Shown here: piece by piece, positions 30,001-42,282 of the stretch
Layout of the letters: each line of letters begins with the position of its first letter
How positions within the stretch are numbered: position 1 is the stretch's first letter
From: Candidatus Babeliales bacterium
Lineage (GTDB): Bacteria > Babelota > Babeliae > Babelales > JANWKD01
Direction: 5' to 3'
DNA: 64,000 bases
Assembly (NCBI GenBank): GCA_963722075.1
Contig: CAVRJM010000001.1
Span: 1,184,001 to 1,248,000, forward strand
The notes under the pieces: generated by a model
Databases searched by the model: none
What the model saw: the letters and a program-made list of their open reading frames with translations, nothing else
What the model was told of the DNA's origin: nothing
Translations under genes and position numbers: made by a program

Positions 30001-30438
30001 TTATTTTTTCAGTGCAAGCCAAGTGAAAAGAGCAATTAAGCTAGCGCCGCCGACTCCCAACCCGGTAGCAATTTGCACTTTTTTATTTTTATAAAATGGC
30101 AGTATCTGTCCGCTGTTGCCAGGAGCAACATTATTCGTGTGTGATGTAGGATTTTTTAAATATTCTTGAGACTCGATTGATGGTGCTTCTTGATCTGCTG
30201 GTGGCGTTAACAGTTGTTGCAAGGTAGAATGATCAGCTGAATTGCTCATGGGAAATTGTGGCTGATTAATTTTTGGCGAAGGAAGTACCTCAGGTGCTGG
30301 TATATTAGTATCTACTTTGTGCCATTCAAGTGAGTCTGTTAATTTCTCGAGTTCTTTTTGTTTATCTTGCTCCATTGCAAACATAGACAATGGTAAAAAT
30401 AGAGCAAAACCGGTTAAAAATTTAGTAAGCATGTTCAT
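30001..30438 (-). CDS. Secreted tail-anchored protein with LIR-like motif
   Basis: AAGGAG RBS before MNMLTK; signal ending MFA|ME; DSLEWHKV; C-terminal TM followed by KK. Confidence 0.7.
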   Translation of the reverse strand: MNMLTKFLTGFALFLPLSMFAMEQDKQKELEKLTDSLEWHKVDTNIPAPEVLPSPKINQPQFPMSNSADHSTLQQLLTPPADQEAPSIESQEYLKNPTSHTNNVAPGNSGQILPFYKNKKVQIATGLGVGGASLIALFTWLALKK

Positions 30439-30602
30439 AATTAATAACTCCTTTATCAAATAATTATGATATTTTTTTCCAAGTATATGCACACAAAGCA
30501 ATAAAAGGCAAGACAAGATATTATTGCTGGCTTGGATAGAGAAATGTTATACTGATTAAAAAGGGCTATTTATTGCTATTTTTATTATAAAATGGAGAGG
30601 TT

Positions 30603-31271
30603 ATGAAGTCTATTAAAATTATGTTTTTTCTTAGTTCGGTTTTTCTAATAATATCATTGCAATCTAATGGTTTAAAAACTCCCGATGATTTCTTGTTTTT
30701 TGCCATTAAACAGTTTGGGCCAAGTTGGGATTCTTCTCCGGCTGTTAGAGAGCAATTAGAAAAAGGTGCCAACCCTAATGCTCAAAAGAAGGGCAAAACG
30801 GCGATTATGCAGGTAATTGAAGAAAAGTATGCCGGGAAAAACCGTATTAAACCATTGCTATTATTATTAGAACGTACAAATAATGTTGACTTTGTTGCTG
30901 ATAATGGGATGACTGCGCTTACCTTTGCGGCATCATTAGGTGACGATGATATGGTTAATGTATTATTAGAAAATGGTGCTAATCGTTATAAGAAAGATGC
31001 CTACGGCATGGATTATCTCGATTATATTGTGGAAAATGAGATCTATGAAAATAAACCAAATGAGCTAAAAGCAATTAGAATAGAACGAGAAAAAAATCTT
31101 TTAAATAAAGAATTATCAGAGTTTGAGGTTATTCGTTTGCGCCATGAAATTGAAGAAGAAGAATATGAGCGGCGCGAACAAAAAGAATGGGAAAAAGTTA
31201 GAGAGCTTGATAAAATTATACGAAAAGAATTAAGAGAACTTGAAGAAGGGTGGGAGTTGGTAGAGGAATAA
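30603..31271 (+). CDS. Secreted ankyrin-repeat protein with acidic LIR-like C-tail
   Basis: GANPN, GKTAIM, GMTALTFAA, LLENGAN ankyrin motifs; signal peptide. Confidence 0.85.
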   Translation: MKSIKIMFFLSSVFLIISLQSNGLKTPDDFLFFAIKQFGPSWDSSPAVREQLEKGANPNAQKKGKTAIMQVIEEKYAGKNRIKPLLLLLERTNNVDFVADNGMTALTFAASLGDDDMVNVLLENGANRYKKDAYGMDYLDYIVENEIYENKPNELKAIRIEREKNLLNKELSEFEVIRLRHEIEEEEYERREQKEWEKVRELDKIIRKELRELEEGWELVEE

Positions 31272-32629
31272 TGTATAAAAAAAGCTTATTTATCTTTCGT
31301 CGAGATTTGCGCTTAGAAGATAATATTGGCTTAAATGAAGCATTACGAAATTCAGCCCATGTTATTCCTTGTTTCATTTTTGATCTACGCCAATTATCAC
31401 CGGATAATGAATTCCGTTCATTACGTGCTATTACCTTTATGATAGAATCTTTGCTTGATTTACAAAAACAACTTAAACACGTCAATGGAAAGCTTTATTT
31501 TTTTTCGGGTATTGCTGAAGAAGTAGTAAAGAAAATAATAAAACAAGAGTCAATAGAAGCGGTATATTTTAATCGTGATTATACGCCATTCAGTATAAAG
31601 CGTGACGAAGCAATAAAAAAAGCGTGTATTCAAAATAATGTTGATTTTTTTATATGTGACGATGCGCTTTTAAATCCACCTGAATCAATAAAAACGCAAA
31701 AAAATGAACCGTTTTCAAAATTTACTCCGTATTATAAAAAAGCACTACTGTATTCCGTTGATAAACCTGCTTTTTTAGCAGGTGCTCATTTCTATCACAA
31801 ACCCATAAACGATACGCTTTCAGGTAATATAGACCCATTAATAGAAATTAAAAATGAGGTCATTAAGGGCGGCTCTAAAGAAGCAGCAAAGATTTTACGA
31901 TCATTAAAGAAATTTAAAAATTATGCGCATGAACATGATTTTCCTTCAATTGCTACCACCCATCTTTCAGCGCATAATAAATTTGGCACCGTTTCAATTA
32001 GGACTGTTTATCATGCAATAAAAAAGCAACTAGGAGCAGGGCATCCGCTGCTACGTCAATTATATTGGCGCGACTTTTTTACCTATGTTGCCTATCATTC
32101 TCCCTTTGTTTTTGGTGAGTCATTTTATAAAAAATATGAAAAGTTGTGGTGGAGTGATAATAAAAAATTATTTACATTGTGGTGCGAAGGCAAAACAGGA
32201 TTCCCTATTGTTGATGCAGGAATGAGAGAATTAAATCAAACAGGGTTTATGCATAATAGGGTGCGATTGCTAGTTGCATCATTCTTAGTAAAGGATTTGC
32301 ATATAAACTGGCTCTGGGGAGAACGCTATTTTGCCCAACATTTAATTGATTATGATCCAGCCGTAAATAATGGTAATTGGCAATGGTGTGCTTCTACTGG
32401 GTGTGATGCGCAGCCCTATTTTAGAATATTTAATCCCTGGTTACAGCAAAAAAAATTTGATGCTGAATGTGTATATATTAAAAAATGGATACCTGAACTC
32501 AAAGATGTAGAGAACGCTACTATTCATACCTGGTATGCGCAAAAGCAATCGATCAACAATTATCCATTACCAATTGTAGATCATGCTTATGAGAGCAAAA
32601 TAGCTAAAAAACTCTTTAAAAACCTCTAA
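31271..32629 (+). CDS. phrB: Deoxyribodipyrimidine photolyase (class I CPD)
   Basis: FRRDLRLEDN, LYWRDF, GKTGFPIVDAGMREL, GFMHNRVR, DYDPAVNNGNWQW, FRIFNP; TAATG overlap start. Confidence 0.95.
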   Translation: MYKKSLFIFRRDLRLEDNIGLNEALRNSAHVIPCFIFDLRQLSPDNEFRSLRAITFMIESLLDLQKQLKHVNGKLYFFSGIAEEVVKKIIKQESIEAVYFNRDYTPFSIKRDEAIKKACIQNNVDFFICDDALLNPPESIKTQKNEPFSKFTPYYKKALLYSVDKPAFLAGAHFYHKPINDTLSGNIDPLIEIKNEVIKGGSKEAAKILRSLKKFKNYAHEHDFPSIATTHLSAHNKFGTVSIRTVYHAIKKQLGAGHPLLRQLYWRDFFTYVAYHSPFVFGESFYKKYEKLWWSDNKKLFTLWCEGKTGFPIVDAGMRELNQTGFMHNRVRLLVASFLVKDLHINWLWGERYFAQHLIDYDPAVNNGNWQWCASTGCDAQPYFRIFNPWLQQKKFDAECVYIKKWIPELKDVENATIHTWYAQKQSINNYPLPIVDHAYESKIAKKLFKNL

Positions 32630-32693
32630 TATTGCAATTTGAAACTATAAAATAGTATAATTATAGTAGCTATTTATCTGAAAAGGAGTTATT

Positions 32694-33311
32694 ATGAATA
32701 AAAAATCACCTATTATAACCTTTCTTTTATCAACTGTTTTATTTTCTTTAGAAGCAAATCATAATATTGAAAAATATATTCCAAAGATTGCTGAGCAAAT
32801 TAACGCTCTAGAGTTTTATCACCCAAAAGTTCAAGGATGGACGCCTTTTGAGCAGATAAGTTTATTTTTACACCAAGCAGGTTTTAAACAAGAAAAACCA
32901 AACCCAAATATTCAAATTGATGGAAAAACTCTTTTGATGTATTTCATGGAAAAAGTAACAGGAAATCGTATCGAAGCGCTTAAACGTTTATTAAAAGTTT
33001 TAAATAATTATATGATGGATATAAATGTAATTGCTGATAATGGGATGACAGCACTTACATTTGCTGCCTCAAGAAATGATAATGAAATGGTAGAAGGATT
33101 AATCACGTATGGCAAAGCTGATGTTAATCAGCCTGATGCATTTGGCAAAACATATAGGGATTATTTAATAGAAAATGAAATAAAAAGAAAAGAAAAAGTG
33201 GAAGAGGAATTGCGAAGGGAATTTGAGTTTATTCGTACCAAAGAAGAATTGGAAGAAGAGCGGGAAAAAGAATTAGAAAAAGAACTTGAAGAATGGGAAA
33301 TAATTGGTTAA
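32694..33311 (+). CDS. Secreted ankyrin-repeat protein with acidic LIR-like C-tail (paralog of 30603)
   Basis: ADNGMTALTFAAS shared with the 30603 ORF; signal peptide. Confidence 0.85.
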   Translation: MNKKSPIITFLLSTVLFSLEANHNIEKYIPKIAEQINALEFYHPKVQGWTPFEQISLFLHQAGFKQEKPNPNIQIDGKTLLMYFMEKVTGNRIEALKRLLKVLNNYMMDINVIADNGMTALTFAASRNDNEMVEGLITYGKADVNQPDAFGKTYRDYLIENEIKRKEKVEEELRREFEFIRTKEELEEEREKELEKELEEWEIIG

Positions 33312-33336
33312 CCAATTACTATAAATGGAGTGTTGT

Positions 33337-33894
33337 ATGAAAATTAATAAATTATTTTTATTGGTATCGATGAGTTTTATTGCAAATTTATTTTGTTCAT
33401 ATTCTTTACGCCAAGATATTCCAAACAAAGCATTATTTGATGCTATTGAAAATGCGAATGTTAACGCGGTGAGAGTATTGTTAGCAGAAAAAAGAATTAA
33501 TCCAAATATACCATATCAAGGGAAATCTGCGCTTATTAAAGCAATTACGTTATCAGATCCTAATGCAAAAGCAATTGTGGAATTGCTCCTAAAGCATGAT
33601 GCTAATCCCGATTACATTGATGATTCGGGAATGACTCCTTTAGTAGCTGCTAAATATGTTAATAAGCCGGATATTGTTTTGCTGCTATTGCAATATGGGG
33701 CTCGGGTAACCACTGATAAAACATTACGTGAAGAGAAAAAGCCTAAAATTACCTGTCCGTATGAAAAAGGCCTTAAGAAATTAGAAAAAGAATTTTATAT
33801 GGTGCCTGAAGAGCCTAAAAAAGAAGAAGAGGAATGGACGGTAATCGAAAGCCCTAAATCTGCATGGGAGACATTAAAGCGCTGGCTCTATTAA
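33337..33894 (+). CDS. Secreted ankyrin-repeat protein with acidic LIR-like C-tail
   Basis: LFDAIEN, GKSALIKA, LLLKHDANPD, GMTPLVAA, LLLQYGA; signal peptide. Confidence 0.85.
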   Translation: MKINKLFLLVSMSFIANLFCSYSLRQDIPNKALFDAIENANVNAVRVLLAEKRINPNIPYQGKSALIKAITLSDPNAKAIVELLLKHDANPDYIDDSGMTPLVAAKYVNKPDIVLLLLQYGARVTTDKTLREEKKPKITCPYEKGLKKLEKEFYMVPEEPKKEEEEWTVIESPKSAWETLKRWLY

Positions 33895-33955: not shown

Positions 33956-34380
33956 GGGGGCGTACTGGCTTCGACGTGGTATCGATAGGTTAAAGAGCAT
34001 GCCAAGTTTTGACTGAAAACTTGTAAAAGAATTGGTCGAAATATAAATGCAAACACTGTTAAAAGTGATGTTCCTGCAGCTTTATTTGGTTCAATCCAAA
34101 ATTCAGTATTTGGTGCTCAAGCAGCAGCTTGTGCTTAATTACTGAATAGTTCAGGACACTTGTTAGCATAACGTGCTTATCAGCGGTGCTAACACGTATT
34201 ACAAGAGATAAGACTTTCTCGCGTAGATTACATAATTTTGTAGCGAGAAAAAACACTAAATTATCCTTACTTTCTATCTGTGTTTTCGAGGTGAAGTAAC
34301 GGTATATTCGAAAACTGAGCATGGAGTACTTTAAGCTTGACATATTGCGGACATGGGTTCGATTCCCATCGCCTCCACCA
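33956..34380 (+). ncRNA. ssrA: Transfer-messenger RNA
   Basis: 5' GGGGGCG...TTCGAC; 3' T-arm GGGTTCGATTCCC and CGCCTCCACCA; tag ORF 34049-34138 ending AAACA. Confidence 0.95.
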
Positions 34381-34427
34381 GTCTTCGCCCTTCGGGCTAC
34401 GCCTGGCACGGCCAGTTTCTTTAGCGG

Positions 34428-35534
34428 CTAATAATTATGATCCAATACATCAATATATGGCTTAAACTTAAATAAACGGCCTCTTTTTTGTTGCGTTTCT
34501 TCTACTAAGATCCCATTTGCCATAAAATCAGTAATAATTTTATGAGCCGTATTATACGAAGTATTGAGCTGCTTACTGAGTTCTTGAATATTAATAATCG
34601 GTATCCTAAAAAAAATTGATAATGCTTTTAACCGTGTACGCATGGTTGCGGTTGACTGTTTTTCTTGCGTAATTTGATCCCGCAGTGAGTGTTCTAATGA
34701 AGCGATATCTTTTGCGCGTCGGTGAGCATCAATGCTTGTTTCTTTGATAGCGGTTAAATAAAAAAGCACCCATCCTTCAAAATCGCCTTTGGTACGTACT
34801 TGATCAAGTCGTTGATAATACTCAAGTTGATTCTTTTTAAAATAATAAGAAAGATACAAAATGGGTTCATCAAGTAATTTGTTATCAATGAGCATAAGTG
34901 CGATTAATAATCTACCAATACGGCCATTGCCATCTAAAAAAGGGTGTATGGTTTCAAATTGAACATGGGCAAGACCTGCTTTAATAAGCGGCATAGGTTC
35001 TTCGCTGTTAATATACTTTTCTAAATCGGTCATTAAATCTGGAATTAATTGTGGTGGTGGTGGAATTAGAGCGCCCACGCGTACTGGTTGTTTTCGATAA
35101 TGACCTGGATTGGCTTTTTCGCCTTCTCCTTTCTCCATCAATGTTTTATGCGCAGCAAGAATTACGCGCGAAGAAATAGGCAATCCCTCTTTTTTGACCA
35201 TATCAACTGCTTTATAAATAGCGGTACAGTAGTTCATCACTAGTTGTGTATCCTTACCTGCCTTGCCGCCGCTTAATGGTTGAGTAAAAACATCTAAAAG
35301 CGTAGTGTGAATTCCTTCAATTGAAGAGGATAAAAGCGCTTCTTTAATGACATATGATTTGATAAATCGCTTTGGATCGGGTAAACTATTAGTCATCTCG
35401 TTTAGTTTGCCCAATTGAAGCATCGCTTCTCCGTATGCATCTATGATTTTTTCATTTAGTAATAATGGCGGTTCGTGGGGCGGTAATGAATCAGGTATAA
35501 AATAGCTATCTTCGTAATGGCCCGTTATACGCAT
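34428..35534 (-). CDS. Fic-domain protein (AMPylase family) with C-terminal HTH-like region
   Basis: HPFLDGNGRIGR Fic motif; SSSIEG inhibitory motif. Confidence 0.92.
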   Translation of the reverse strand: MRITGHYEDSYFIPDSLPPHEPPLLLNEKIIDAYGEAMLQLGKLNEMTNSLPDPKRFIKSYVIKEALLSSSIEGIHTTLLDVFTQPLSGGKAGKDTQLVMNYCTAIYKAVDMVKKEGLPISSRVILAAHKTLMEKGEGEKANPGHYRKQPVRVGALIPPPPQLIPDLMTDLEKYINSEEPMPLIKAGLAHVQFETIHPFLDGNGRIGRLLIALMLIDNKLLDEPILYLSYYFKKNQLEYYQRLDQVRTKGDFEGWVLFYLTAIKETSIDAHRRAKDIASLEHSLRDQITQEKQSTATMRTRLKALSIFFRIPIINIQELSKQLNTSYNTAHKIITDFMANGILVEETQQKRGRLFKFKPYIDVLDHNY

Positions 35535-35687
35535 TTTTATCCCTTTTTACGGCATTTTGTTTCAATAAATAGTTCTTAATTGAAATAATCATTCAAATTG
35601 CTCTCTTTTATTTAATAAAATAATTATACAATGAAATAAAGAATACAAGAAGGTTGATTTTATGCGACCAGAATTTCGGATAAATAA

Positions 35688-35862
35688 TTGACTTTTAGAA
35701 TTGTATAATTTACAATTAGAATATAAAAATATATTGAAATTAGGGGGCGTACAGCTTCGACGCGCTCATGAAAACGGGAAGGGGATGCCGAGTTTCGACT
35801 GATTTCATTTTCAATATCACGAGCTTGTAAAAAGAAAAACTCTTGATTCAAACAAGCTGTTT
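35688..35862 (+). ncRNA. Diverged copy of the tmRNA promoter and 5' domain, without a 3' tRNA-like end
   Basis: TTGACT-N17-TACAAT, then GGGGGCGTACAGCTTCGACG...ATGCCGAGTTTCGACTGA...CTTGTAAAAAGAA, colinear with ssrA 33956-34060. Confidence 0.6.
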
Positions 35863-35901
35863 TAGGTATACTTAAATTAGGTATGATAAAGGGAGGGTAC
35901 C

Positions 35902-36288
35902 ATGAGATCACATTTTAATTTTACTTTTCTTTTTTTGCTTTTCATAAATTTCTTTTTTAATAGCTACTCATTTGATATTGGTGCTGATGATGAAGGGTTT
36001 GAAGATATTTTTAGTGAAGATATGGGTGGCAGAGTAAATTTTTCTGAGGATATTATTAATCCTGAAGTTGGTCCAGACCAAAAAAAGGAAGAAGCGCCAC
36101 GTCCTATTGAATATCCTGAAGTTCGTTATAAAGTTATTAATCCGGAACAGGAAATTAGTGAGCCAGCAGTTGATACGTCTATAAAAATTCCTTTAGAAGA
36201 TGTTCCTGTAGAAGATATTTCTTTAGAAAATGATGAAAGTGATGGAATTGTAACAATTCCTGAGCTTGAAATTATTGAAGATCAATAA
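35902..36288 (+). CDS. Secreted highly acidic, likely disordered protein with LIR-like motif
   Basis: GGGAGG RBS; signal peptide; DDEGFEDI. Confidence 0.65.
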   Translation: MRSHFNFTFLFLLFINFFFNSYSFDIGADDEGFEDIFSEDMGGRVNFSEDIINPEVGPDQKKEEAPRPIEYPEVRYKVINPEQEISEPAVDTSIKIPLEDVPVEDISLENDESDGIVTIPELEIIEDQ

Positions 36289-36307
36289 TTGCATAGAGAT
36301 AAAAATG

Positions 36308-36347
36308 AAAAGGGCCGATATCAGTAATGATATCGGCCCTTTTTTTT
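36308..36347 (+). terminator. Rho-independent terminator
   Basis: AAAAGGGCCGATATC-loop-GATATCGGCCCTTTT with a T run. Confidence 0.85.
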
Positions 36348-36354
36348 ATAATGA

Positions 36355-37480
36355 CAGGACTTACGCATAAGTAGCACCAATATAACGATCTAATCGAGTG
36401 AACATACGATTTAGAGAAGAAGGATTTTTATTCTTAAAGGCTGTGATAGCGGCTTCTGGATTCTTATAAGAATCCAATTGAGCGATTGAATAAGCTAAGA
36501 AGACAGCGCAGATATGATCAAATTGCGTAACTATTTTTCTGGAAAAGCATTCTTGAAGGCCTAAGCTTTGCTTAGAAGTTCTGATTAATTTTTCTATTCC
36601 CCAACGATTTTTATAATTAGTAGCATGTTGCTTTGGAGTGGCTTTATACGTTGCAGCCTGGTAAACAATAGTTTCATTACCATGCTTATCAATGCGCCTT
36701 ACGGCAGTAATGTAAAGGGAAAGACCATGCCAAACAATGGTTATAGTGCGAGCCATCTGCCGGCCCTTTGGGCGTATTTCTTTAATTTCATGCAACTTTC
36801 TTTTTTTCCCTTTATATTCAACTACACGGTTACTATGCATACGCACTTCGGTTGCAATATTATTTTCTATAGCCCATTTTAAATATTCCACCGAAGCAAA
36901 TGCACCATCCAAAACTGCAATAATTCTTGCATTGGGAAAAAGTTTTTGAGCTTCGATGATAAATAGTTGTACCGTGATTATTAATGCTTGCTTGGGATTC
37001 TGATAAAACTCTTTTCCAAATGTAAAAACAGTATTGATTGGCACAGTAAATTTACCATCGGAAATGGCACTAATAAGCAATTTATATGCGTTAATGGATC
37101 TACCAATTTTTGTGTCAAAAAACCAACACGTACCATCCATCATTTGGGAGTAAATTTTCTTAATAGTTGTTTCATCTATGATTACTAATAGCTCTTTTTT
37201 ATGAGCAAAAATTTGTTGGGCAATTCTTTTTGATTGTTCAAGGCTTTCACGTCCTGATCGCAACATGCGATTAACAGTGTCACCACTTTTTTTGATGAGC
37301 TTACCCATATTTTCAAAACTTCTTTTTCCAATATTGGTAAGGATTGTAAGTAATGGATAAGTTGCTATATTATTAACAATGATCATTTAGGTTCTCCTTC
37401 GATTTAGTTGTTTTAGGAGAGCCTATTATTTTTTTAAAATACGTCTAGATCATATCTTTAAGTTATTTGCGCAAGTCCTG
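36355..37480 (-). mobile_element. Insertion sequence (IS4/IS701-like), 1126 bp
   Basis: TIRs CAGGACTTACGCA and CAGGACTTGCGCA; 6-bp TSD TAATGA at 36349-36354 and 37481-37486. Confidence 0.9.
36361..37386 (-). CDS. DDE transposase
   Basis: IIDETT, VLDGAF, YKNRWGIEKLIRTSK (YREK-like). Confidence 0.9.
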   Translation of the reverse strand: MIIVNNIATYPLLTILTNIGKRSFENMGKLIKKSGDTVNRMLRSGRESLEQSKRIAQQIFAHKKELLVIIDETTIKKIYSQMMDGTCWFFDTKIGRSINAYKLLISAISDGKFTVPINTVFTFGKEFYQNPKQALIITVQLFIIEAQKLFPNARIIAVLDGAFASVEYLKWAIENNIATEVRMHSNRVVEYKGKKRKLHEIKEIRPKGRQMARTITIVWHGLSLYITAVRRIDKHGNETIVYQAATYKATPKQHATNYKNRWGIEKLIRTSKQSLGLQECFSRKIVTQFDHICAVFLAYSIAQLDSYKNPEAAITAFKNKNPSSLNRMFTRLDRYIGATYA

Positions 37481-37551
37481 TAATGAAGCTGCTAGCGCGG
37501 ATAAAAAACAGGCGAGAGATATAATTATTTCAATTAATTTGACTCATTTTA

Positions 37552-38784
37552 CTTAAGTTTGGACAACTTCATTGTTAATAACTCCTAAAGGCATCAAACG
37601 CAATATACTTAGCCGAAATATTGTCGCGCAGGTAAAATTGAACTTGGCATATTGCTTTCCTAAGCTTGTGACGAGTATATGAATAAATCATATTAAGCAG
37701 AACATGCAATCCACTGAATTTGAGCCGCTCGCGCTTAGAAAGCACCTGATTACGTACTATTTCTCCAATCAAAATCAATAAGTTGTAAGCTATTAAGCCG
37801 ATTAGAAGCAATTTATGAAGATTATTCACCGTTTTGTTCATAAGTTTTGTAAAGCCCAATTTATCTTTTATGTCTTTGAAACTTTCTTCAATTTTCATAC
37901 GTTTTTTATAGTATTTTAAACCTTCGCATGGTTCACAATTTGTAATTACATATAAAGCTTCATGCATATTGGATTGCCATTCAGCAGCTATATTTACTTT
38001 GACATTTCCCTTATAATAAACTTCTTTCCAATTCTTCTTTGAACCTCGTGTAATAGAAATATCGATTTTACGGTACTTTTTATCAGTTATATTCACTGTA
38101 TGCCTTCCAGAATTAACTTTTAAGCGTATTGCATAATGAATTTGACGTGTGGTAAAGAATTTAATCATCTCTTCATTAGATAATTCTCGATCAGCAATAA
38201 TTATCTTATTGCAAAGCAAGTCAAATAATGGCTGTAAGGCATTTTGTAGAAACTTCCATTTGCCAATATTAGTCTGATCGATTGTTGAAGAGGATATTAT
38301 ATCTGCGAATATCACTTTTGATCGTCCTTTGAATGGTACACTTAATGCCAAAATATTGTACCCATGCGTTTTTCCATCTTTTAAATAACCAACATAATTA
38401 GTTTTATTAGCGCCTTTTCGAACCATCTCAGTAAAATCCAATAATATCATTTTGCTTGTTGAATCAATAAATGTTAAAAGAGCTTCTGACAGCTGCGATA
38501 CATCTAGCTTATTAAGCATCCTCGTAATCTTTTTATAATTCGTTTCATAATTGCCGGGCAACGCTGCAGAAATACTGGAAATTCTAAGTCTTCTTGTTTG
38601 CTGAAAGCTCCAAATCATTGATCCGATCAATTCTGCGAATTCTATTTTGAATATTTTTAGTGAATTAATCATTTTTATGATACAATTTTTAGCAATCATG
38701 ATTTCTCCTGATTTTGGCGTTTTTTCTTGTTTTTTAAAAAATACACCAGATCAGGAGTTTCTTCTATTTATGTCCGAACTTCAG
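37552..38784 (-). mobile_element. Insertion sequence (IS4 family), 1233 bp
   Basis: TIRs CTTAAGTTTGGACA and CTGAAGTTCGGACA; 6-bp TSD ATTTTA at 37546-37551 and 38785-38790. Confidence 0.88.
37575..38699 (-). CDS. IS4-family DDE transposase
   Basis: LLDFTE, IADRE, YKKRMKIEESFKDIK (YREK). Confidence 0.9.
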   Translation of the reverse strand: MIAKNCIIKMINSLKIFKIEFAELIGSMIWSFQQTRRLRISSISAALPGNYETNYKKITRMLNKLDVSQLSEALLTFIDSTSKMILLDFTEMVRKGANKTNYVGYLKDGKTHGYNILALSVPFKGRSKVIFADIISSSTIDQTNIGKWKFLQNALQPLFDLLCNKIIIADRELSNEEMIKFFTTRQIHYAIRLKVNSGRHTVNITDKKYRKIDISITRGSKKNWKEVYYKGNVKVNIAAEWQSNMHEALYVITNCEPCEGLKYYKKRMKIEESFKDIKDKLGFTKLMNKTVNNLHKLLLIGLIAYNLLILIGEIVRNQVLSKRERLKFSGLHVLLNMIYSYTRHKLRKAICQVQFYLRDNISAKYIAFDAFRSY

Positions 38785-38886: not shown

Positions 38887-41800
38887 ATGAAGAATAGAAG
38901 GCTTAAAGTCTTTATTGCCAGAATGGTGATGGTAGGTTTGCTTGTGCAACATGCTGTGCCGTTGATGGCTGCCTATGAACAAGATTCAGTAAGCGAACAA
39001 CCAGCTGAAAACTTACCGATTAAGAATAAAAGAGTAAAATCAGAAGACTCTATAGATCCTCATGCGCTCATACCAACTGCCGATACGAGTGAACAAATAG
39101 TAGTTATTGATGATGAGCAGTTAGAACATTTTATTGCATCTATAGTAAAAACCGTTGCTAGAAATGGAACACAGGAAACATTGTCAGAAGAAATGATGAT
39201 TTTTTGTGAACAATTACTAACCGGTAAAAAAGAATTTTCAGTTGGATTCTTGTGCAAAGTTGTTCCTCAATTATTAACGCTCGCAAATAAAAGCATGGAA
39301 GAAGAACGTGCCATGCGACCGAACGTTGGGTTTCAAGATGGGTCAATAGTTGGTCCATTACTTTCTTGCAACTTTGACCAAGTTCTTGCCTTGCTTCATC
39401 AAATTTTTAATTTTTTAATGCAATGTTGTGCTACCATAGAATTTGATTTAAATGGTGTGTTTACCTTATTAAATACTGATTTTAATGGAACCTTTACCTT
39501 TCTTAATGAAATAGAAAATACCTTAACTACGTGCTGTGCTACCATAGAAAATGATTTAAATGGCGTATTTACCTTATTGAATACAGATTTTAATGGAACT
39601 TTTACTTTTCTTAATGAAATAGAGAACACCATAACTACATGCTGTGCAATTGTAGAAAATGACTTGAATGGGGTATTTACGTTATTGAATACAGATTTTA
39701 ATGGAACCTTTACCTTTCTTGATGAAATAGAAAATACCTTAACTACGTGTTGTGCAATTGTAGAAAATGATTTGAATGGAGTATTTACGGCACTTGCAGC
39801 TTTAACAGTAACGGTTACGGTTGATTTTACGGATGTATTCACCACGCTTGATGATATTAATAATACACTAACTACCTGTTGCGCAATCGTAGAAAATGAT
39901 TTAAATGGCGTATTTACCGTACTCAATACTGATTTTAATGGGGTTTTTACCGCATTAGCTGATTTATCAGTAACGGTCACGGTTGATTTTACGGATGTAT
40001 TTACCACACTTGATGAAATTAATAATACATTAACTACTTGCTGTGCGATCGTAGAAAATGATTTAAATGGTGTCTTTACCGCCCTCAATGATATAAGTAC
40101 ATCGTTTACTGTTGATATTACAAATATATTTACCACACTTGAGGATATTAATAATACATTAACTACGTGTTGCGCGATTGTAGAGAATGATTTGAATGGC
40201 GTATTTACGGTATTAAATACCGACTTTAATGGTACCTTTACTATGTTAACAGATATATTTAATACCCTGACTACTGGTTGTGCATCAATTACACCTTGTA
40301 ATCCTGTCTTTATTACTCAGGCAGATGTGGGAACGACTGGTTATACCATTACACAATCTGGAGTGTACTTTCTAAAAGAAAATATTGTATTTAGTCCAGC
40401 AACAATATCTGATGCCATTACTATAGAAGCTGATGATGTGCAATTAAATTTACAATGTTTTATTTTATCACAAGGTAATGCGCAACCATCTGTGACTGGT
40501 ATTGTTGTTGTGCCTGGGGTTAATAGCACTACTATCGAAAATGGTACCATCTCGGGATTTACTAATAATGGTATTAGTGTTGATCTGAGTGTATCGGATT
40601 TTACTCTCTTAAATACTGTTATACGTCGAAATGGCTCTGGTCTATTTTTAGATGGAGTAGTAGGATCCCCTGTTTCAAATTTTATTGTTAGAAATGTGGA
40701 ATTTAATTCCAATCTTATTGGGTTGGTTATGACAAATGCTAATAATGGGATTATCCAAGGTTCAATTTTGTCACGTAACAAAACTGGTATAATGATGACT
40801 GATTGCTCTGGCAATGTTATTTCACAATGTGATATTAATCAAACGGTACAAACTGATCAGGAAAGCGCGTATGGTATAATTGCTCAAGGGGGATCTAATA
40901 ATCGATTTGAAAGATGTATAATCGATGGCACTTCAACAATGGCAACCACATCAGCATTTGAGGCAACTGGTTTGTATATTGGGAGTGATGAGCAAGGCGA
41001 TCTTATTGTGTGGAATCAAATAAGCAATTCAACGACATCTTCAAATGCTTTTGCCTATGGTATCCATATGGATTACACCTTTATTGGGACTAGTACAGAA
41101 GGCATGCCGAGCATTGTAAGTACTAATACTATTATGAAGCTTGCTTGGTCACCAAGCGATAAATACTTAGGAGTCAATTTTGGCTTTTCGGAAAAGATAT
41201 ACGAATTTGACCTTGCTAATGATCAATTTGTACAAGTAGCAAGCGTTACAACACCAAGTGCTACTTCTGGATTAAGCTGGTCACCTGATGGATCATTTAT
41301 AGCTTTTAGCGATCAATCGGGTGCGATAAATATCTATTCATTTGCCGGTACTACACTTAATTTTGTAACAAGTTTTGATGTTTCACCCAACATCCCACAA
41401 GCTGTCGCATGGTCACCTGATGGGCGATTTATAGCGGTAGGGACATCGGCAGGATCTTCTGGTGAAGAGATTATATTGGAATTTAATGGATCCTCATTAA
41501 GTCAAGTAGCAAGTTTTAGTTCGACCTTTGCACCATTATCAATAGCATGGGCTCCTGAGGGAGATTTTCTTGCAGTTGGAACGACCGAAAATGTGATAGT
41601 GCTTAAATTTGTATCGGGTATTACTTTAACGCAGGTCGCTATTGCTACTCCTTTTGCACCAGTACCTGCAGTTGATTGGGCAGTCGATGGAAGATCGATT
41701 GTTACTGCTCAAAATACAGGAACGCAAAAAGTGGTTGTATATTCATTTTCAGGAACATCGCTTACTATCCAAGCCACGGTTAATAATTCTATAATCATTA

Positions 41801-42282
41801 ATGATGTAAAATGGAGCCCTGACGGCAACTATGTAGTTATGGTTAGTGATACAGGGGGAGTAAATGATACGCATATATTTAAATATACTGGAGTGTCCTT
41901 AGTAGATGTAGCTGATATAAATCATGGTGCTAACATAAATAGTGCTTCATGGTCACATGGCGGTGCCTACATAGCCATTGGGGGACAACCACCATCTAAT
42001 GAAGCAGAACAAACGCTCAATCCATTTTTATTCCCCGTAAATATTATTCGTAATAATGAAATTTATAATATTCATGGACCAGCGCTTGCAGCAGGAATTC
42101 CAGGATATTCTACTGGCAGAGCGTTAAGTGCTTCATCTAATACCAGTTTAATTATACAAAATACTGCATTTAATAATGATGTTAATTATGTTTTTGTTAC
42201 TAATACATATCAACAATTTTTAGCAAATACACAAAGTATGTTCCCTAACTTATTATCCAACATGTTCTTTCCACCGCTATAA
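38887..42282 (+). CDS. Secreted Cys-Cys-repeat stalk / beta-helix / 7-bladed beta-propeller protein (paralog A)
   Basis: Signal peptide; 7 xCC repeats; parallel beta-helix repeats; seven W-S-P-D-G-like blades. Confidence 0.85.
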   Translation: MKNRRLKVFIARMVMVGLLVQHAVPLMAAYEQDSVSEQPAENLPIKNKRVKSEDSIDPHALIPTADTSEQIVVIDDEQLEHFIASIVKTVARNGTQETLSEEMMIFCEQLLTGKKEFSVGFLCKVVPQLLTLANKSMEEERAMRPNVGFQDGSIVGPLLSCNFDQVLALLHQIFNFLMQCCATIEFDLNGVFTLLNTDFNGTFTFLNEIENTLTTCCATIENDLNGVFTLLNTDFNGTFTFLNEIENTITTCCAIVENDLNGVFTLLNTDFNGTFTFLDEIENTLTTCCAIVENDLNGVFTALAALTVTVTVDFTDVFTTLDDINNTLTTCCAIVENDLNGVFTVLNTDFNGVFTALADLSVTVTVDFTDVFTTLDEINNTLTTCCAIVENDLNGVFTALNDISTSFTVDITNIFTTLEDINNTLTTCCAIVENDLNGVFTVLNTDFNGTFTMLTDIFNTLTTGCASITPCNPVFITQADVGTTGYTITQSGVYFLKENIVFSPATISDAITIEADDVQLNLQCFILSQGNAQPSVTGIVVVPGVNSTTIENGTISGFTNNGISVDLSVSDFTLLNTVIRRNGSGLFLDGVVGSPVSNFIVRNVEFNSNLIGLVMTNANNGIIQGSILSRNKTGIMMTDCSGNVISQCDINQTVQTDQESAYGIIAQGGSNNRFERCIIDGTSTMATTSAFEATGLYIGSDEQGDLIVWNQISNSTTSSNAFAYGIHMDYTFIGTSTEGMPSIVSTNTIMKLAWSPSDKYLGVNFGFSEKIYEFDLANDQFVQVASVTTPSATSGLSWSPDGSFIAFSDQSGAINIYSFAGTTLNFVTSFDVSPNIPQAVAWSPDGRFIAVGTSAGSSGEEIILEFNGSSLSQVASFSSTFAPLSIAWAPEGDFLAVGTTENVIVLKFVSGITLTQVAIATPFAPVPAVDWAVDGRSIVTAQNTGTQKVVVYSFSGTSLTIQATVNNSIIINDVKWSPDGNYVVMVSDTGGVNDTHIFKYTGVSLVDVADINHGANINSASWSHGGAYIAIGGQPPSNEAEQTLNPFLFPVNIIRNNEIYNIHGPALAAGIPGYSTGRALSASSNTSLIIQNTAFNNDVNYVFVTNTYQQFLANTQSMFPNLLSNMFFPPL
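39421..40290 (+). repeat. Intragenic tandem repeats, 108-bp (36-aa) base unit TCCAIVENDLNGVFTLLNTDFNGTFTFLNEIENTLT
   Basis: Seven units, some with VTVTVDF-type inserts. Confidence 0.9.

Follow-up and report, generated by a model that had tools for sequence, protein, structure and literature searches.

Conserved LIR-like motifs in the tails of ankyrin proteins from a Babelota bacterium: candidate exported adaptors for host ATG8

A cluster of three ankyrin genes in the genome of a Candidatus Babeliales bacterium (1.47 Mb, 35% GC) encodes proteins whose acidic tails carry short motifs resembling the LC3-interacting region (LIR), the linear motif by which ATG8 is bound in autophagy. The cluster lies on the forward strand of the stretch of DNA analysed here (64,000 nucleotides, positions 1,184,001 to 1,248,000 of contig CAVRJM010000001.1, hereafter the window) and comprises gene 1 (30603..31271), gene 2 (32694..33311) and gene 3 (33337..33894). 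Judging from the conservation of these motifs in a family of 24 members, the three proteins are, with a probability of roughly 0.55, adaptors exported by the Sec and type II systems, whose motifs would bind the ATG8 of the host. The strong evidence is this conservation, not the statistics of single proteins.

Conserved motifs in a small family of ankyrin proteins

The three open reading frames (ORFs), their ankyrin repeats (each protein being above the Pfam Ank_2 cut-off) and all eight tail motifs quoted in the original prediction, which had been made from the DNA of the window, are present. Gene 1 encodes 222 amino acids (aa), with a predicted signal peptide at about aa 1-21, ankyrin repeats, a long predicted helix (aa 152-215) and an acidic tail; its motifs are FEVI (F174; 31122..31133), which falls within the predicted helix, WEKV (W196; 31188..31199) and the terminal WELV (W217; 31251..31262). 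In gene 2 (205 aa), a predicted signal peptide and diverged ankyrin repeats are followed by FEFI (F177; 33222..33233), with Glu at -1 and +7, and by WEII (W201; 33294..33305), which stops one residue short of the C-terminus, the two motifs being separated by a 19-aa spacer rich in E, K and R. Gene 3 (185 aa) has a predicted signal peptide, ankyrin repeats, a helix (141-153), the motif FYMV followed by Pro (F153; 33793..33807), an acidic linker and a terminal amphipathic helix (aa 176-185; 33862..33891). It also carries WTVI (W167; 33835..33846) and WETL (W177).

Three protein searches and two genome regions yielded a family of 24 members, of which 13 belong to type A (genes 1 and 2 among them) and 11 to type B (gene 3 among them). 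Pairwise identities range from 26% to 92%, and 9 type A and 8 type B clusters are obtained at 70% identity. Generic ankyrin matches from the same searches, with low scores and devoid of the tail, were kept out of the family and served as controls. The signal peptides announced in the original prediction agree with a heuristic test, a basic N-terminus followed by a hydrophobic 10-mer (Kyte-Doolittle 2.0-3.4) being found in all 24 members, and no lipobox or twin-arginine motif was seen in any of these 24 N-termini.

An acidic core of the form [W/F/Y]xx[L/I/V] is found in the tail of every member (24/24). It falls within the last 60 aa in 22 of the 22 family proteins that have a protein identifier. 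Among the controls, it does so in 13 of 264 non-family proteins returned by the ankyrin searches, and in 1 of the remaining 37 ankyrin proteins of the source genome; all such counts concern related sequences and not independent events. Motif 1, common to both types and located at the end of a conserved helix, displays Glu at -1 and Phe or Trp at position 0 in 24/24 members, L/I/V at +3 in 23/24, an acidic residue at +7 in 21/24 and Pro at +4 in 12/24, among which are all 11 proteins of type B, so that the latter share the form E-[F/W]-x-x-[L/V/I]-P (11/11). Its aromatic residue swaps between F and W only (in type B, Phe in 3/11 and Trp in 8/11) and +3 stays L/I/V, while the two middle positions vary. 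Motif 2, the terminal W-x-x-[I/V/L] of type A, retains both Trp and L/I/V at +3 in all 13 proteins; position -2 is acidic in 12 of these and position -3 in 11. It lies 5-12 residues from the C-terminus and 10-46 residues after motif 1, a spread of spacer lengths as expected for independent linear motifs.

Along the type A tree (length 9.6), low site rates characterize E173 and F174 (0.13), W217 (0.20), V220 (0.38) and I177 (0.41), for a tail mean of 1.07 and a rate of 2.04 at V176, the +2 position of motif 1. Along the type B tree (5.4 changes per site), the slowest columns are E152, P157 and L184; F153 (0.61) and V156 (0.72) are only moderately slow because their residues interchange within a class. 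The motif had already been defined when five further type B proteins were found; all of them carry it, three being within 70% identity of earlier members. Overall, the alignments support a substitution pattern of the conserved motifs that is that of a LIR.

Several tail motifs of the window do not share this conservation. WEKV of gene 1 is missing in the closest homologue (P0002, 51% identical) and opens a predicted helix with heptad-like periodicity; it was rejected and is probably not a LIR. WETL of gene 3 was likewise rejected, as it starts a terminal helix that is conserved for its amphipathic character (hydrophobic moment 0.69 in gene 3 and 0.38-0.70 across 11/11 type B proteins, with Trp in 10/11 and Leu in 11/11) and not for an acidic flank. 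Because it is amphipathic, this helix (aa 176-184 in the structural model, with W177 at its start) is probably a membrane anchor rather than a LIR. WTVI of gene 3 is a good match to the consensus in a predicted coil, and a second acidic W motif of this kind occurs in just 2/11 type B proteins, being missing in the closest homologue of gene 3 (P0017, 69% identical). With WEKV and WETL rejected and WTVI rarely kept, the sequences describe two designs, namely a putatively bivalent type A and a type B combining a single motif with a predicted anchor. The description of the tails as LIR-like is supported for motif 1 and for motif 2 of type A, but not for WEKV and WETL, and the proposed order of an F-type motif followed by a W-type motif is kept in type A and lost in type B, in which most proteins have Trp in motif 1 and few have a second motif.

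Taken one protein at a time, the evidence for the motifs is modest. In composition-preserving shuffles, at least two acidic cores in the last 60 aa arise by chance with P = 0.060, 0.079 and 0.018 for genes 1, 2 and 3. The xLIR expression of iLIR, a check suggested by the original prediction, did recover three, two and one matches in the respective tails (P = 0.0004, 0.014 and 0.11). As the three genes are paralogues, their P values are not to be multiplied. Across the family, the expression is matched by 20 of 24 members, and at least two xLIRs are carried by 2 of the 40 ankyrin proteins of the source genome, versus 0.11 ± 0.34. The tail signal belongs to this family alone.

Agreement with known LIRs

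In the available text of two sources, LIRs are described by a core consensus, an acidic flank and an acid at +7 (PMC7615515; PMC8727931). The core [W/F/Y]-x-x-[L/I/V] is present in all eight window motifs, and an acid at -1 to -3 accompanies motif 1 and motif 2, although not WETL of gene 3. Two cores are identical to LIRs reported in the accessible part of a further source, WEII of gene 2 to that of NEDD4 and FEVI of gene 1 to that of RTN3 (PMC9907853). An acid at +7 is described for FAM134B, SEC62, AnkG/B and FYCO1, and a "core + C-helix" mode of binding adds a hydrophobic residue at +8 or +11 (PMC8727931, in the portion available). WEII of gene 2 is the best LIR candidate of the window.

Distribution and relationships of the family

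Full-length type B matches were found in 3 of 261 Babelota genomes, all from one taxonomic family (12 candidates scored per genome), and the three-gene cluster has the same distribution (3/261). Type A and type B genes co-occur in all three carrier genomes. In the relatives G003 (one A and two B genes) and G004 (two A and one B), the genes are consecutive and share a strand, and their locus differs from that of the window; they sit among what we take to be housekeeping genes, from rnpA-like to thioredoxin-reductase-like ORFs, named by reading their translations. An integrase-core (rve) insertion element lies directly 3' of the G004 cluster (L017:6783-7778). Neither type was found in genome G002 (64% complete).

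The source genome contains 40 ankyrin ORFs, as counted by mapping Ank_2 matches to our own ORF calls (three matches fell outside called ORFs), and only 3 of these 40 have the tail described here. With a profile of the type B tail, one weak extra match was obtained in this genome (E 0.17), a 102-aa protein that lacks ankyrin repeats and whose start resembles a signal peptide (L103:1309-1617, that is G000:C1:629808-630116). Tail-only hidden Markov models gave no match in 79 loci outside the clusters, and a profile search of a library of 1.84 billion representatives, swamped by long ankyrin proteins, added no member. Scans of metagenome and viral contigs returned generic ankyrin loci only, and an ESM Atlas search with the gene 2 tail returned nothing at 0.9 or above. 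ATG8 itself gave no match above the Pfam cut-off in the 261 Babelota genomes. Among the contigs of the viral collection, 13 (L050-L062), many of them labelled as giant-virus bins, match an ATG8 motif, and 11 have a full-length ATG8-like ORF with a terminal F-G.

A profile of the type A tail matches the tail of gene 3 (E 1.7e-5). A tree with 12 other ankyrin proteins of the source genome neither establishes nor rejects a single clade of types A and B (support 70/63); with five outgroups, the support is 81/95. In a tree built from the ankyrin part only, members are more than one change per site apart, with motifs still kept. The ankyrin part of gene 2 forms a long branch and its motifs are unchanged, which would fit a variable partner and a fixed recruiter.

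A possible mode of action

All cultured members of the Babelota (Dependentiae/TM6) infect and live within protists, according to the text available of one source (PMC12172432). In the available parts of three papers, Babelota are described as obligately intracellular in protists and as encoding from some tens to over 100 secreted ankyrin proteins per genome, the type II system is the reported export route, and signal peptides are found on most of these ankyrin proteins, including 79 of 126 in Babela and 78% in Chromulinavorax (PMC4378268, PMC4776705, PMC6561590). The two secretins encoded by the source genome match the type II system described for the phylum.

The proteins are likely to be exported by Sec; they would pass through the type II system and gain access to the cytosol of the protist host. 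There, the aromatic and +3 residues of motif 2, and probably of motif 1, would enter the hydrophobic pockets HP1 and HP2 of ATG8, and the acids at -1 to -3 and at +7 would meet its basic surface. In type A, two motifs on a spacer of free length would provide avidity on lipidated ATG8; a type B protein, with one motif and a membrane anchor, would recruit ATG8 from its position on a membrane. The partner of the ankyrin faces would come from the host or from the bacterial surface, and this partner, or the membrane, would thereby be tied to ATG8-coated host membranes. As a result, autophagic membrane, lipid and nutrients might be drawn to the replicating bacterium, or a host protein might be routed into autophagy. 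Reaching the host cytosol is the weakest part of this mechanism.

Among the roles that ATG8-binding proteins of this kind could have, that of adaptor or tether is tentatively ranked first, above that of a pure decoy blocking host receptors, which appears rather unlikely. More specifically, and as a doubtful but possible extension, the family may constitute a set of non-enzymatic bacterial receptors for selective autophagy. Of two kinds, bivalent for ATG8 or anchored in a membrane, these adaptors would use their fast-changing ankyrin faces to pick host proteins or organelles for the autophagosomes of the protist, either feeding the bacterium or removing host defences. Fold searches retrieved generic ankyrin and DARPin structures only and gave no pointer to a cargo.

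Points against ATG8 binding and competing explanations

Several observations, presented below together with the explanations to which they relate, weigh against exported adaptors that bind ATG8. Motif 1 has Lys at -2 in 12/24 members, motif 2 has Pro at -1 in 4/13, and Tyr at +1 makes four type B proteins fail the xLIR expression. The acid at +7 is weak evidence in tails that are 24-30% acidic and is missing in genes 1 and 3 of the window, two of the three exceptions in the family. A hydrophobic residue at +8 or +11, as expected for the C-helix mode, is present in only about 7/24. Furthermore, the motif columns derive from MAFFT alignments, in which the motifs partly place the gaps themselves.

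The motifs may bind another host receptor, most plausibly the Claw of Atg11/FIP200 through a FIP200-interacting region (FIR), in which case the proteins would still be exported adaptors with ATG8 not their main target; we regard this as unlikely. The FIR consensus, [DEST][DEST][FWYILV]xx[ILV] with an acid required at -1, nearly coincides with the LIR in the available text of its source (PMC7615515). Consistent with such a reader, Glu occupies -1 in every motif 1, three motifs of the window fit the consensus (SE-FEVI, EE-WEII and EE-WTVI), and conserved positions extend beyond the LIR core (Pro at +4 in 11/11 type B proteins, Leu/Ile at -3/-4, and P141-Y142). Yet a FIR permits I/L/V at the first core position, which is aromatic in 39/39 instances (24 of motif 1, 13 of motif 2 in type A and 2 of the second motif in type B), and the full FIR flank at -2 and -1 is found in just 8/24 of motif 1 and 6/13 of motif 2. 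With respect to kinesin light chain, its W-acidic motif requires W-[D/E], which is present in only 5/13 of motif 2.

Predicted structures also raise difficulties. AlphaFold models were obtained for genes 1 and 3 from shallow alignments (13 and 6 rows). In gene 1, FEVI and WEKV are spanned by one 64-residue helix (152-215) of high pLDDT, and in gene 3, motif 1 begins at the end of helix 141-153, in line with the caveat of the original prediction that parts of the tails may be helical; canonical LIRs bind in extended form. Heptad periodicity was detected at aa 192-217 of gene 1 (P = 0.011) and in the gene 2 tail (P = 0.016), both values being uncorrected for 15 tests. The long helix across F174 and W196, the heptad signals and the joint presence of types A and B in all carrier genomes would agree with a structural or self-assembly role, in which the helix ending in motif 1 would be packed against the ankyrin domain or engaged in a coiled coil, while the aromatic motifs would occupy the ankyrin groove of another protein of the cluster. 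This role, to which we give the same low probability as to the alternative receptor, is at odds with the free length of the spacer (10-46 aa) and with the prolines that the spacer holds in compact members. It also finds no counterpart in the models, in which the terminal WELV of gene 1, as well as WTVI of gene 3, is a coil of low pLDDT, and residues 154-175 of gene 3 form a low-confidence coil, with pLDDT below 50 at 153-170, so that neither model docks a motif on its own ankyrin domain. Finally, the ankyrin part of gene 2 has diverged on its long branch while its motifs remained unchanged.

A third difficulty concerns topology and distribution. Should this lineage remain inside a vacuole, export by Sec and the type II system would take the proteins no further than the vacuole lumen; Babela grows in such a compartment, as described in the accessible text of the above papers (PMC4378268, PMC4776705, PMC6561590). 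Neither type was found in G001, a genome of the same genus that is 93% complete. The proteins might have a bacterial partner and act in the periplasm, at the surface of the bacterium or within the vacuole lumen, the match to a LIR being coincidental. Classical signal peptides lead to the periplasm only and are common among the ankyrin proteins of Babela and Chromulinavorax, hence the signal is not special; the terminal helix of type B could bind a bacterial membrane, and the G003 and G004 clusters lie amid genes that read as housekeeping genes from their translations. However, the family is patchy (3/261 genomes) and has changed locus, which is usual for accessory genes of host interaction, and we know of no bacterial receptor for such motifs. 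In addition, Chromulinavorax gets to the host cytoplasm and sheds vesicles, as stated in the available portions of these papers (PMC4378268, PMC4776705, PMC6561590). Such a site of action is considered very unlikely.

Genome-wide searches of tail motifs, run on our own ORF calls (1414 proteins) with a crude signal-peptide rule retaining 559 predicted secreted soluble proteins, failed to show the enrichment by which the original prediction was to be checked. W-type motifs in the last 30 aa were found in 3 proteins, namely genes 1-3, versus 1.5 ± 1.3 after shuffling, and xLIRs in the last 60 aa in 38 versus 41.7 ± 5.4. Fortuitous occurrences of so short a pattern, four residues long, in tails rich in Glu would agree with this result and with the single-protein shuffles (P 0.02-0.08), and do account for WEKV of gene 1 and probably for WETL of gene 3, but as an explanation for the whole they are highly improbable, given aromatic and +3 columns that are invariant over tree lengths of 9.6 (type A) and 5.4 (type B) next to fast columns. 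Elsewhere in the genome, three adjacent predicted secreted proteins each have an acidic W-x-x-L word in the middle of their sequence (L104; G000:C1:602118-603724).

Exported adaptors that bind ATG8 remain our preferred explanation. The autophagy interpretation of the original prediction draws its strength from conservation with the substitution pattern of a LIR; it gained nothing from enrichment, from WEKV and WETL, or from the order of F-type and W-type motifs outside type A.

Genomic neighbourhood of the cluster

A DNA photolyase gene (31271..32629, forward strand), overlooked in the original prediction, lies between genes 1 and 2, with its ATG overlapping the stop codon of gene 1; it is absent from the ankyrin clusters of G003 and G004. 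In gene 3, a second in-frame ATG is found at 33325, and the start at 33337 is preferred because the former falls inside the Shine-Dalgarno-like GGAG that precedes the latter. A promoter scan remained at the level of shuffled sequences (23 versus 19.8 ± 4.0).

Downstream, the cluster is bounded by a tmRNA (transfer-messenger RNA) gene (33956..34380, forward strand), which provides context and is outside the system. It is followed by a Fic-domain gene (34428-35534, reverse strand) and by ORFs for DDE transposases (36361-37386 and 37575-38699), and the region 33956-38699 looks like an insertion hot spot. Two neighbouring ORFs with LIR-like words have neither a Pfam match nor a homologue found in four genomes of the same taxonomic family, and were therefore not counted in the system: ORF 30001-30516 (reverse strand), which starts like a signal peptide and contains a W-x-x-V word and a hydrophobic stretch at its C-terminus, and the small, very acidic ORF 35902-36288 (forward strand), which has the same kind of start and an acidic F-x-x-I word. 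Further downstream, a 1131-aa protein (38887-42282, forward strand) comprises an internal repeat bearing Cys-Cys, a beta-helix and a C-terminal beta-propeller; Cys-bearing repeats of this kind may also adjoin the G004 cluster (L017 13000-16200, opposite-strand ORFs).

Relation to known effectors

Effectors with LIRs, or ATG8-interacting motifs (AIMs), are already known from RavZ and PexRD54, and what would be new here is the phylum and the ankyrin scaffold. PexRD54, an RXLR-WY effector of Phytophthora infestans, has the C-terminal AIM FDWEIV, outcompetes the receptor JOKA2 in binding ATG8 and brings Rab8a to the sites of autophagosomes, as described in the available text (10.1101/2021.10.04.463104). 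Like the proteins described here, it is a secreted, non-enzymatic repeat-domain protein, and its core is nearly the same as the terminal WEII and WELV. In contrast to this oomycete protein with a plant host, WY repeats and one AIM, the family is bacterial and built on ankyrin repeats; its members carry a single motif or two of them, and type B adds a helix predicted to bind a membrane. We do not claim that the two are homologous. The RavZ protein of Legionella pneumophila is also bacterial and combines tandem LIRs with a membrane-targeting part (PMC6941762; PMC8634866, in the parts available). Unlike RavZ, a protease that strips ATG8 off membranes, the 185-222 aa proteins of the window match ankyrin families and folds solely, without any cysteine protease domain, and have predicted signal peptides. 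An ATG4-type peptidase (PF03416) was not found in the source genome either, in a search that had no positive control.

The eukaryotic receptors p62, FAM134B, RTN3 and Atg40 similarly join a partner-binding or membrane module to an acidic LIR, and the acid at +7 is shared with FAM134B, as far as the accessible text of the source goes (PMC8727931). Unlike these receptors, the family has no UBA, PB1 or reticulon domain, and the C-helix hydrophobic residue is mostly missing. Ankyrin-F-box adaptors, such as the poxvirus ANK-F-box proteins and Legionella AnkB, couple an ankyrin module for the substrate to a short one through which degradation machinery of the host is recruited. The analogy holds for the layout, but no F-box was matched at E 0.1 in the proteins of genes 1, 2 and 3, nor were F-box-like families found in the source genome (again a search without positive control), and the recruiting module would here be a linear motif for ATG8. 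Sec-delivered effectors of Liberibacter reportedly act on autophagy.

Closest in phylum and general layout are the signal-peptide ankyrin proteins of Babela and Chromulinavorax, which are presumed to be host-interaction proteins; in the available text of the papers that describe them, no target is assigned and the word "autophag" is absent (PMC4378268, PMC4776705, PMC6561590). More generally, no report of LIRs or ATG8 binding in Babelota/Dependentiae, or in bacterial ankyrin effectors, was found in the open-access literature searched, subscription papers and supplements lying outside that search.

Implications for Babelota

If the tails do bind, ATG8 mimicry as seen in RavZ and PexRD54 would gain a further phylum and a further scaffold, and ATG8 would be the first molecular host target for any ankyrin protein of the Babelota in the literature searched. 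Binding would suggest that the autophagy of protists either serves these bacteria as a resource or threatens them, and would provide indirect evidence that Sec-exported proteins of Babelota are present in the host cytosol. If they also select a cargo, the proteins would represent natural autophagy-targeting adaptors, the autophagy counterpart of ankyrin-F-box effectors. This family reduces the question to a specific and cheap case, that of three short tails and a protist ATG8.

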